NCBI RefSeq assembly: GCF_056712565.1
Contig: NZ_CM160072.1
Direction: 5' to 3' (one strand)
DNA length: 64,000 nt
The notes under the pieces are model-generated. The model did no database searches, was not told the origin of the DNA, and saw nothing but the letters and a program-made list of their open reading frames with translations. The position numbers were made by a program, and so were the translations under genes. Positions 47,351 through 48,996 of this stretch are shown here, piece by piece (position 1 is the stretch's first letter; each line of letters starts with the position of its first letter).

Positions 47351-47566
47351 ATGACGCTTGAGCGAATCAGCGCCTTTATCACGTACTGCATCGCCGTTGT
47401 GCTGGCCTGGCTGGGCGATTTGTCCATCAAGGATGCCTCAACGCTGGGCGGCCTGATGATTGGTGTGCTGATGCTGGCTATCAACTGGTACTACAAACAC
47501 AAAGCCTACCAGCTTCTGCGCGACGGGCAGATCTCGCGGGAGGACTATGAATCCATCAATCGTTAA
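47351..47566 (+). CDS. holin
   Basis: 71 aa; two hydrophobic helices and charged C-terminus; immediately upstream of endolysin. Confidence 0.7.
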   Translation: MTLERISAFITYCIAVVLAWLGDLSIKDASTLGGLMIGVLMLAINWYYKHKAYQLLRDGQISREDYESINR

Positions 47567-48059
47567 ACGCTGCCTTGTCGGGGCCGTGCTGGCTATTGCT
47601 GCCACGCTGCCGGGTTTTCAGCAGCTTCACACCTCCGTAGAGGGGCTGAAACTGATTGCCGATTACGAAGGCTGTCGTCTGCAGCCGTATCAGTGCAGCG
47701 CGGGCGTCTGGACCGACGGCATTGGTAATACGTCGGGCGTCATTCCCGGCAAAACCATTACGGAGCGACAGGCAGCAAAAGGGCTGATCTCCAACGTGCT
47801 GCGTGTGGAGCGGGCGCTGGAAAGGTGTGTGAAGCAACAGCCGCCGCAGAAGGTATATGACGCTACGGTGTCGTTTGCCTTCAACGTGGGAACGGACAAT
47901 GCCTGCAGTTCAACACTGGTGAAATTACTCAATCAGCGGCGCTGGGCGGATGCGTGCCGACAGTTGCCGCGCTGGGTTTATGTGAAAGGTGTGTTTAATC
48001 AGGGGCTGGATAACCGCCGTGCGCGGGAGATGGCCTGGTGTTTACAGGGAGCAAACTGA
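47547..48059 (+). CDS. endolysin, GH24 lysozyme with N-terminal signal-anchor-like segment
   Basis: 170 aa; EGCRLQPYQCSAGVWTDGIGNT catalytic region (E...D...T), T4-lysozyme-like; hydrophobic N-terminus LVGAVLAIAATL. Confidence 0.85.
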   Translation: MNPSIVKRCLVGAVLAIAATLPGFQQLHTSVEGLKLIADYEGCRLQPYQCSAGVWTDGIGNTSGVIPGKTITERQAAKGLISNVLRVERALERCVKQQPPQKVYDATVSFAFNVGTDNACSSTLVKLLNQRRWADACRQLPRWVYVKGVFNQGLDNRRAREMAWCLQGAN

Positions 48060-48060
48060 A

Positions 48061-48438
48061 ATGAAAAAGAAATTAATCAGCGGGCTGTTTCTGATGTTAT
48101 GGATGGCGTTGTTAATCGCAGCAATGGTGTATCCGCAGGGGATTTTTCCGGTACTGGCAGCGTCCGGCGTTTGGGTAGCCTGTTTGCTGACATGGGCGGT
48201 AATTCCGGTAGCACTGGCTGCGTTAATTAAGAATGGACCGCTCTGGCAGGAGTTAAGGGCATCTTTGCTGAAGACAATTACCCGAAAAGAAAACGTATTT
48301 ACCAGTTGGGTGATGCGATTGCTGATTGTTGTAAGTCTCGCCTGGACGGGGTGGGCTATTACCCTGGTGTTTTATCTACTGACCGTTATTGCCTTCTGGA
48401 TCACCCGTAATCAGATGGCGCAACAGGTAGCAGCATGA
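48061..48438 (+). CDS. LysA-like membrane protein (lysis accessory)
   Basis: About 125 aa; four hydrophobic helices; between endolysin and spanins as in P2. Confidence 0.65.
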   Translation: MKKKLISGLFLMLWMALLIAAMVYPQGIFPVLAASGVWVACLLTWAVIPVALAALIKNGPLWQELRASLLKTITRKENVFTSWVMRLLIVVSLAWTGWAITLVFYLLTVIAFWITRNQMAQQVAA

Positions 48439-48863
48439 ACCGGTTGCTGCTGGTTGTGCTGGCGTTATTACTGGCGGCGCTGGGCTGGCAGACGTGGCGG
48501 CTGGCTGATGCCAGCCAGACCATTAGCACGCAGGCAGACGAGCTGCAGAGCAAAAGCCAGGCACTGGCAAAGAGCAACAGCCAGCTTATCAGCCTGTCCA
48601 TTCTGGCTGAAACCAACAACCGGGAGCAGGCGCGGCTCTATGCCGACGCAGAACAGACCAGCGCACTGCTGAGACAACGACAACACCGGATTGAGGAACT
48701 GAAACGTGAGAACGAGGATTTACGCCGCTGGGCTGATACTCCTTTGCCTGCTGACATTATCCGGCTGCGGGAACGCCCCACGCTCACCGGAGGTGCAGCT
48801 TACCGTCAGTGGTTGTCCGCGAGTGACGCCGTGTCGGCTGGATCAGGCAGCGCCGCGCATTAA
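48435..48863 (+). CDS. i-spanin (LysB/Rz-like)
   Basis: 142 aa; N-terminal TM and coiled-coil. Confidence 0.75.
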   Translation: MNRLLLVVLALLLAALGWQTWRLADASQTISTQADELQSKSQALAKSNSQLISLSILAETNNREQARLYADAEQTSALLRQRQHRIEELKRENEDLRRWADTPLPADIIRLRERPTLTGGAAYRQWLSASDAVSAGSGSAAH

Positions 48864-48996
48864 CGGTGATCTGAACGCGTTGTTGGATGAAACGGAGGCC
48901 GCCTGGGCGGTCTGTGCAGACAAAGTGGACATGATTATTGCGTGTCAGGAGCGAAACAGTGAACAAACCACAATCCCTGCGCCACGCCCTCAATAA
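48706..48996 (+). CDS. o-spanin lipoprotein (LysC/Rz1-like), partly embedded in the i-spanin gene
   Basis: 96 aa; lipobox LTLSGC; alternative frame overlapping the LysB 3' end. Confidence 0.7.
   Translation: MRTRIYAAGLILLCLLTLSGCGNAPRSPEVQLTVSGCPRVTPCRLDQAAPRINGDLNALLDETEAAWAVCADKVDMIIACQERNSEQTTIPAPRPQ

Follow-up and report, generated by a model that had tools for sequence, protein, structure and literature searches.

Our analysis indicates that the 64,000-nt stretch examined here (the window; contig NZ_CM160072.1 of RefSeq assembly GCF_056712565.1) carries an intact P2/186-like lysis cassette whose predicted late promoter has been lost, and that this cassette is most likely silent on induction, a silence that we infer from the sequence. 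The 1,646-bp cassette at 47351-48996 is an ordinary five-gene lysis module of a P2/186-like (Peduoviridae) E. coli prophage, a mosaic of known parts. Its genes are as follows.

47351-47566, plus strand: holin of 71 aa, HP1 family (class II); PF16080, phrog_20
47547-48059, plus strand: endolysin of 170 aa, a signal-anchor-release (SAR) GH24 lysozyme of the kind found in P1 (Lyz); PF00959, phrog_7
48061-48438, plus strand: LysA-family membrane protein of 125 aa; phrog_162, NF038378
48435-48863, plus strand: LysB, i-spanin of 142 aa anchored by an N-terminal transmembrane segment; TIGR03495, phrog_89
48706-48996, plus strand: LysC, o-spanin lipoprotein of 96 aa that starts with GTG and is read in the +1 frame relative to lysB; NF038368, PF23793

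All five open reading frames have a start and a stop codon and contain no internal stops, and ribosome-binding sites and translational coupling are kept across the cassette. Four of the five genes score above the cutoffs of curated family models; for the LysA-like gene the hits are NF038378, above its cutoff, and phrog_162, with none in Pfam. The gene identities proposed in the preliminary description (holin, GH24 endolysin, LysA-like protein, i-spanin and o-spanin) are thus borne out by family models. Frameshifts were sought in the five lysis genes and none was found, because the genes are as long as their counterparts in three related phage records and the cassette matches, at 100% nucleotide identity, that of the E. 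coli SF-468 prophage, whose late region is uninterrupted; the earlier claim that all five genes are intact therefore stands. A single gap that BLAST reported within 45046-54400 turned out to mark one end of a deletion upstream (the second of the two described below), and a lysis-gene indel was rejected.

The cassette type is already known. Besides the SF-468 prophage, Klebsiella phage KP12 (clone KP12_3, peg.316-320), whose near-identical cassette was previously described, and Escherichia phage 500465-1 (Wadgaonvirus) carry cassettes with 97% nucleotide identity and equal gene lengths. Similar DNA was detected in 1,037 of 5,426 complete E. coli genomes.

The P2 cassette (Y, K, lysA, lysB and lysC) sits at the same point of the O operon, flanked by tail gene X and tail-completion gene R. 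The lysA, lysB and lysC genes of P2 and of the window share their PHROG and NCBIfam families, whereas the window holin and endolysin belong to different PHROGs from P2 Y (93 aa, phrog_175) and K (phrog_90). Y and K were rejected as homologues of the two on these assignments and on BLASTP comparisons, which gave no significant match.

Based on its family matches, the product of 47351-47566 is an HP1-family class II holin, predicted to form membrane lesions. It scores 36.7 bits against PF16080 (gathering cutoff 28.8) and matches the holin family phrog_20 with an E value of 1.9e-26, and PGAP names the SF-468 counterpart 'HP1 family phage holin'. Two transmembrane domains show up as peaks of hydrophobicity (residues 6-22 and 28-44), followed by a C-terminal tail with five K/R and four D/E residues; the 3' end of the gene overlaps the endolysin start by 20 nt. 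Phage 21 likewise pairs a small two-domain holin, S21, with a SAR endolysin, R21, whose structure (3HDE) is matched by the window endolysin at E 7e-17. A pinholin of the S21 type was not accepted, given that the pinholin model PF04971 scores 23.2 bits, under its cutoff of 26, and that the first transmembrane domain is strongly hydrophobic (peak Kyte-Doolittle value 2.12, with 35% small residues), although composition alone is a weak guide to a SAR-like first domain. Unlike S21, the window holin has an N-terminus (MTLER...) without a visible dual-start motif.

The endolysin matches PF00959 (GH24) with an E value of 1.4e-39, and its matches in the PDB comprise P1 Lyz, R21, P22 and GH24 muramidases. 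The best solved relatives are the P1 Lyz structures 1XJT and 1XJU (E 2.8e-26), with the motif EGCR..PY.C.AGVWTDGIGNT aligned. The catalytic triad E41-8X-C50-5X-T56 is present; the definition of this triad and the role of its cysteine in P1 Lyz have been described (PMC3556154). At the N-terminus, K7-R8 precede CLVGAVLAIAATLPGFQ, and the hydrophobic segment at residues 9-25 (Kyte-Doolittle value 1.78, 41% G/A/S/T) accords with the earlier description of a GH24 endolysin bearing such a segment. P1 Lyz shares the E-8X-C-5X-T triad, the cysteine two residues past the glutamate and a weakly hydrophobic, cysteine-bearing N-terminal helix, and the HMMER alignment of the two proteins starts within residues 9-25. 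Each has seven cysteines, and the alignment shows five of them in matched columns. Cys9 of the window protein, however, directly follows K7-R8, where the helix meets the cytoplasm, and the alignment does not pair it with P1 Lyz Cys13. Cysteines 9, 43 and 50 are all retained in homologues down to 80% identity. By analogy, the protein is interpreted as a GH24 endolysin of the P1-Lyz SAR type, for which export, release and disulfide isomerisation are predicted.

The LysA-like protein scores 122 bits against NF038378 (cutoff 40) and matches phrog_162 end to end at E 1.2e-43, as does P2 LysA at 1.8e-67, while the pairwise BLASTP comparison of the two proteins is marginal (E 0.016). Hydrophobic runs at about residues 3-29, 26-58, 78-100 and 93-116 point to roughly four transmembrane segments, and the gene lies at the expected place, between the endolysin gene and lysB. 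The P2 record describes LysA as 'nonessential; affects timing of lysis', and by analogy the product of 48061-48438 is probably a modulator of lysis timing. Some E. coli relatives do not have a lysA gene.

LysB scores 174.5 bits against TIGR03495 phage_LysB (cutoff 92.75), shares 33% identity with P2 LysB over 76 aa (E 7e-9) and has its transmembrane peak at residues 4-20; its ATG and the lysA TGA share the tetranucleotide ATGA. LysC scores 123.6 bits against NF038368 P2_Rz1 (cutoff 27, E 2.7e-36) and 50.3 bits against PF23793 LysC (cutoff 27). Its lipobox reads LSGC, with Cys21 and a glycine at +2 (non-Asp), and a GAGGA motif lies 8 nt 5' of its GTG. The alignment with P2 LysC (43% identity) runs from residue 1 (MRT[KR]I[FY]AAG), which fixes the lysC start. 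Mature LysC has four cysteines beyond the lipid-modified one and LysB has none; periplasmic cysteines available for intermolecular spanin disulfides are a criterion discussed in PMC6139136. An out-of-frame lipoprotein o-spanin with a lipobox is thus confirmed, and the longer reading frame chosen for it in the preliminary description is better than the mostly truncated public annotations: in the SF-468, KP12 and 500465-1 records the o-spanin is annotated too short and the lipobox is missed.

The o-spanin gene was previously said to be embedded. The terms 'embedded' and 'overlapped' are defined in PMC6139136, and lysC shares 158 nt with lysB, whose stop is at 48863, and runs on for another 133 nt to 48996, its final 38 nt falling in gene R. 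The architecture is therefore overlapped, of the P2 type; the PGAP annotation of SF-468 also notes an overlapped lysB/lysC pair. The geometry is the same in P2, whose lysC also encodes 96 aa, overlaps lysB and is read in the +1 frame. Lambda Rz/Rz1 also combines an inner-membrane anchored subunit with an outer-membrane lipoprotein in the +1 frame, but Rz1 lies wholly inside Rz, unlike the window lysC.

If expressed, these proteins would act through steps carried over by inference from P1 Lyz, P2 and lambda. The two-domain HP1-family holin would accumulate in the inner membrane, where the Sec-exported SAR endolysin would be held inactive, its catalytic Cys50 probably disulfide-locked to Cys43. 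Holin triggering and depolarisation would let the N-terminal SAR helix exit the bilayer, and its Cys9 would probably reshuffle the disulfide and open the active site. The LysA-family protein would adjust the timing of lysis, and the overlapped LysB/LysC pair would disrupt the outer membrane.

The E. coli SF-468 prophage served as the reference for the span 35200-54400 of the window, over which the two are the same save for two deletions; the rest of the window differs by four SNPs, a 3-nt indel and a flipped invertible segment.

44548-44549, junction, no strand: 231-bp deletion relative to SF-468, with 100% identity on both sides
44581-45930, plus strand: O::N fusion ORF, first in the lysis-gene operon, created by a 559-bp deletion with its junction at 45049-45050

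Terminase P loses its first 41 codons to the 231-bp deletion, and the P-O intergenic region, 142 bp long in SF-468, loses 110 bp and keeps 32 bp 5' of the O ATG. The second deletion joins, in frame, residues 1-156 of scaffold O, a methionine and residues 61-352 of capsid N. The head defect suspected earlier is therefore real, consisting of this fusion and of a terminase P without its first 41 residues. In the SF-468, KP12 and 500465-1 records, unlike the window, the P-O intergenic region is complete and O and N are distinct genes.

In P2, four Ogr-dependent late promoters with TGT-N12-ACA sites serve the PQ, ONMLKRS, VWJIHG and FI-D operons (PMC3931495). The P2 record lists O, N, M, L, X, Y, K, lysA, lysB, R and S in the PO operon, and gives a single activator-binding site for pO and pP and an O-operon start site 40 nt 5' of O. 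In the window the corresponding transcription unit also contains the following genes.

45934-46584, plus strand: gene M, between O::N and the holin gene
46680-47144, plus strand: gene L, between O::N and the holin gene
47144-47347, plus strand: tail gene X, between O::N and the holin gene
48959-49390, plus strand: tail-completion gene R, at the operon end (PF06891, E 5.7e-48)
49383-49820, plus strand: tail-completion gene S, last gene of the operon (PF05069, E 1.2e-36)

The 231-bp segment that was deleted holds a TGT-N12-ACA dyad, TGTGTGGTTGTCGGTACA. In the alignment with P2 this dyad coincides with the annotated activator site, and the deletion's right end falls within a few nucleotides of the O-operon start site. 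The putative PP/PO late-promoter region, in which the two divergent promoters would share the sole dyad for an Ogr/B-type activator 5' of the operon running from O::N to S, is therefore lost in the window, a difference from P2 as well. Because this region and its only activator dyad are deleted, the late-operon switch-on of the cassette is probably lost too. Two retained sites elsewhere in the window served as positive controls.

52035-52052, plus strand: TGT-N12-ACA activator site (PV), 65 nt 5' of the V ATG
58047-58064, plus strand: TGT-N12-ACA activator site (PF), 94 nt 5' of the sheath gene ATG

Scans with simple consensus patterns found no TGT-N12-ACA motif in 31005-51233 and no sigma-70-like promoter on the plus strand of 41800-49865. 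A weak or unconventional promoter may lie inside O::N-M-L-X, and read-through may arrive from the plus-strand genes at 40624-41852, running antisense through Q and P.

Several other elements were recorded along this region. An Rfam search of 44000-53000 for RNA elements returned no matches. The M-L intergenic region holds GC-rich hairpins (46590-46640) that have no T-run and are identical in SF-468. In SF-468, an ogr/B-type activator gene lies about 3 kb past the position matching the window end. Finally, a LexA-box-like site at 39241-39256 stands 5' of a pair formed by a small ORF and a DinI-like gene (4101-4533 of our locus L006; about 39300-39732 in the window), and suggests SOS inducibility.

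The preliminary description held that the cassette is complete and functional, so that the lysogen would lyse on induction despite making no heads. Intactness of the five reading frames, their identity to those of a prophage with an uninterrupted late region, the conserved translation signals and the possible SOS response through the LexA-box-like site all speak for it. SAR endolysins, once made, can lyse cells with little or no holin (PMC9025707), and low-level transcription of this one might be enough for lysis. Against this stand the deletion of the PP/PO region with its sole activator dyad and the failure of the scans to find another dyad or a sigma-70-like plus-strand promoter upstream. 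We regard lysis on induction as unlikely, though it deserves serious weight. The claim that lysis capability is retained thus extends no further than the coding sequence; late expression was probably lost with the PP/PO deletion.

The deletions themselves could be assembly or sequencing artefacts, in which case the real prophage would resemble SF-468, with a normal promoter, heads and lysis. The junctions were searched as 22+22-nt words, since an 80-nt junction query was uninformative, ranking split two-piece matches as full ones. The 44-mer spanning the 231-bp junction was absent from the 5,426 complete E. coli genomes, and so was its counterpart at the second junction. That both are missing from every one of these genomes, and that the flanks match SF-468 at 100% identity, would fit an artefact. 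The deleted segments, however, are unique sequence and no end repeats were seen at the junctions, so that assembly collapse would be unexpected; moreover, the four SNPs, the 3-nt indel and the flipped invertible segment are typical of a real sister strain. An artefactual origin is accordingly judged improbable.

The pattern of damage also allows a reading in which a prophage that no longer makes heads is undergoing domestication into a tailocin-like or altruistic-lysis module under a promoter that we did not recognise. R-type pyocins are known to originate from P2-type tails that have lysis cassettes of their own. In the window, damage affects the head genes, and both the tail genes present there and the lysis genes are identical to those of SF-468. 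The deleted promoter, however, serves tail genes X, R and S as well, and the deletions occur in this strain only, with zero divergence elsewhere; strain-confined deletions of this kind therefore point to very recent decay rather than to a selected state. Domestication is on this evidence extremely improbable. Scarcely more credible is its specific form, in which the lysis genes together with X, R and S would still be expressed from an unrecognised promoter, making the prophage an SOS-triggered tailocin or altruistic-lysis element at a first step of domestication. An intact cassette that has lost its late promoter remains the preferred reading.

A cassette type found in about one-fifth of complete E. 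coli genomes, and already described in near-identical phages, has little significance by itself. What is new is the promoter deletion, which lies outside 47351-48996. The position of PO is about 2.8 kb 5' of the lysis genes in the window, against about 3.3 kb in SF-468, where the prophage is intact. Since the lysis genes of P2-like prophages depend on PO, intact lysis reading frames alone do not predict lysis. Likewise, 'embedded' and 'overlapped' spanin architectures need separate treatment. In the present prophage, the coding capacity for lysis has been kept while late expression has probably been lost, which makes lysis on induction doubtful.

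Five close-packed ORFs on the + strand (47351-48996) make up the lysis cassette of this P2/186-like prophage, in the gene order X-lysis cassette-R-S that is also found in phage P2.

Lysis cassette and neighbouring genes
47144-47347, +, tail gene X, upstream neighbour of the cassette
47351-47566, +, holin, 71 aa
47547-48059, +, endolysin, 170 aa; 20-nt overlap with the holin gene
48061-48438, +, LysA-like membrane protein, 125 aa
48435-48863, +, LysB, 142 aa; ATG overlaps the TGA of the LysA-like gene
48706-48996, +, LysC, 96 aa; GTG start, +1 frame relative to lysB
48959-49390, +, tail-completion gene R, downstream neighbour
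49383-49820, +, tail-completion gene S, downstream neighbour

Gene lengths are the same as in Escherichia phage 500465-1, Klebsiella phage KP12 and vB_EcoM-813R9 (~97% identical), the cassette is 100% identical to that of E. coli SF-468, whose prophage has an uninterrupted late region, and DNA like it is present in 1,037 of the 5,426 complete E. coli genomes searched. Because of these matching lengths, the SF-468 identity and this commonness, the cassette is, by sequence comparison, real, intact and already known; the preliminary description had correctly called all five lysis genes intact. Relative to P2, the cassette is a mosaic at the level of gene families: lysA, lysB and lysC have homologues here, whereas the P2 holin Y and endolysin K belong to families other than those of the window holin and endolysin.

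The holin matched PF16080, the HP1 holin family (36.7 bits against a Pfam cutoff of 28.8), as well as phrog_20, and by hydropathy it has two hydrophobic segments followed by a charged tail; the score against the pinholin family PF04971 fell under the cutoff, and the first transmembrane segment is strongly hydrophobic. The endolysin is a GH24 protein (PF00959, E 1.4e-39), with P1 Lyz (1XJT/1XJU) as its closest solved relative (E 2.8e-26). Both share the Glu-8X-Cys-5X-Thr triad (E41, C50 and T56 in the window endolysin), a cysteine two residues past the Glu (C43), and a weakly hydrophobic N-terminal helix containing a cysteine (C9); each has seven cysteines, five of them in matched columns of the printed alignment. 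Homologues as little as 80% identical keep C9, C43 and C50. The same triad is found in P1 Lyz and R21, both signal-anchor-release (SAR) endolysins, and in P1 Lyz the triad cysteine is locked in a disulfide until activation (PMC3556154). From the triad, cysteine pattern and N-terminal helix in common with P1 Lyz, together with that work, we infer a sequence in which the endolysin would be exported and tethered, inactive, in the inner membrane; depolarisation of the membrane by the holin would release it, thiol-disulfide exchange would activate it, and the spanin pair would then break the outer membrane. The window allele is unfused, at 170 aa. Many public genomes (P0010, P0022 and others) encode a 296-aa endolysin::LysA fusion, in which a frame shift after '...DNRRAR' (equivalent to window ~48025-48061) replaces the last 10 endolysin residues and joins the lysA frame.

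Pfam gave no match for the LysA-like protein, which does fit NF038378 and phrog_162. P2 LysA also matches phrog_162, end to end; pairwise BLASTP between the two proteins is marginal (E 0.016). Since P2 LysA falls in the same PHROG, the label 'LysA-like' is justified at profile level. Hydrophobic runs in this protein are consistent with ~4 transmembrane segments. In some E. coli relatives (H90, H91), 74% of the cassette is matched, over a span ~376 nt shorter, and the LysA-like gene DNZ54_00345 is not annotated; the gene therefore appears dispensable.

The i-spanin LysB matched TIGR03495 at 174.5 bits (cutoff 92.75) and has a single N-terminal anchor by hydropathy. The o-spanin LysC matched NF038368 (E 2.7e-36) and also passed PF23793, and its lipoprotein signal ends in L-S-G-C, with Cys21 and a Gly at +2. 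Although the o-spanin had been described as embedded, the first 158 nt of lysC overlap the end of lysB, and the gene runs 133 nt past the lysB stop, 38 nt into R. Such geometry, the same as in P2, is defined as 'overlapped' by Kongari et al., who name P2 LysB/LysC as a paradigm two-component pair (PMC6139136); the PGAP note for the SF-468 o-spanin likewise reads 'not fully embedded'. The GTG at 48706 can be assigned as the correct lysC start, because the alignment with P2 LysC, a 96-aa protein with an ATG start, begins at residue 1 (MRTKIFAAG versus MRTRIYAAG) and GAGGA lies 8 nt upstream. The longer LysC called initially thus improves on the databases: related records (L001-L003 and L006, the public SF-468 annotation) give o-spanins of 38, 57, 56 and 82 aa, which begin downstream of, or too near, the lipobox and so lose it.

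Outside the cassette, the window has a single LexA-box-like site, CTGT-N8-ACAG (39241-39256), ~44 nt upstream of the first of two genes.

~39300-39732 (L006 4101-4533), small ORF and DinI-like gene pair, after replication gene A

Because the site precedes this pair, a 186-type SOS-inducible prophage is suggested; the arrangement resembles that of the tum region in phage 186, which is under SOS control. A low-GC two-gene cargo (40624-41852), a protease-like gene with a small partner, sits between the replication region and the portal gene Q and matched the PADLOC candidate system PDC-M35A/B (E 8e-94 and 4e-58). Where P2 has orf30, between S and V, a low-GC (~34%) gene (49966-51924) encodes a 652-aa AAA ATPase. 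The PADLOC models for AriA (E 1e-21) and Old (E 2e-11) match it, and the gene is probably cargo with a role in anti-phage defence; a hairpin terminator follows (~51930-51951), and then, a short way before the PV activator dyad (52035), ~7 tandem CTCTAAC heptamers (~51958-52006), identical in SF-468. S has 145 aa here and 148 aa in 500465-1, KP12 and 813R9, its last 31 codons (49727-49820) diverging from theirs at the start of this AT-rich cargo region; SF-468 shares the window's form of S.

SF-468 is a near-identical match across the whole window; the differences are 4 SNPs plus one 3-nt indel in host genes, together with a flipped segment and two deletions. The flipped segment (55572-57367) is inverted and adjoins a recombinase-family (DNA invertase) gene (57426-57998), so it resembles an invertible tail-fibre switch set the other way round. 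Both deletions lie upstream of the cassette and reshape two ORFs.

42903-44630, remaining ORF of terminase gene P, with 28 unrelated N-terminal residues
44581-45930, O::N fusion ORF made by the 559-bp deletion

With the 559-bp deletion (junction 45049|45050), scaffold O (aa 1-156) runs in frame into capsid N (aa 61-352), so the head defect suspected earlier is real. The 231-bp deletion (junction 44548|44549) takes away the PP/PO late-promoter region: P loses its first 41 codons, and 110 bp of the 142-bp P-O gap are gone, leaving 32 bp upstream of the O ATG. Within this deleted segment lay the perfect TGT-N12-ACA dyad TGTGTGGTTGTCGGTACA; in P2, the four late promoters have this motif and depend on Ogr (PMC3931495). 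In the P2 record, pO and pP share one annotated activator-binding site at the equivalent place, and the operon 'O, N, M, L, X, Y, K, lysA, lysB, R, S' has its annotated start site 40 nt before O. When the two sequences are aligned, their dyads match up, and the deletion ends on its right side within a few nt of the O-operon start site. Dyads that serve as positive controls are kept before V (65 nt upstream) and before the sheath gene (94 nt upstream). A motif scan found none in 31005-51233, and a simple promoter scan found no sigma-70-like + strand promoter in 41800-49865.

Lysis capability had been thought retained: coding capacity is indeed fully kept, but the promoter that should express it is lost. 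In the most likely state, which we consider fairly probable as far as simple promoter scans indicate, the cassette would be intact but transcriptionally orphaned. The tail genes X, R and S would likewise cease to be expressed with the promoter gone. Read-through transcription into the cassette is possible, and SAR endolysins are able to lyse at low expression (PMC9025707). Neither junction occurs in the 5,426 complete E. coli genomes, so both deletions are, by this comparison, private to the window strain, and given zero divergence elsewhere they are recent; there is a small chance that they are assembly artefacts. The cassette offers no novelty in itself, and the loss of its promoter would represent a strain-specific decay event of modest interest.
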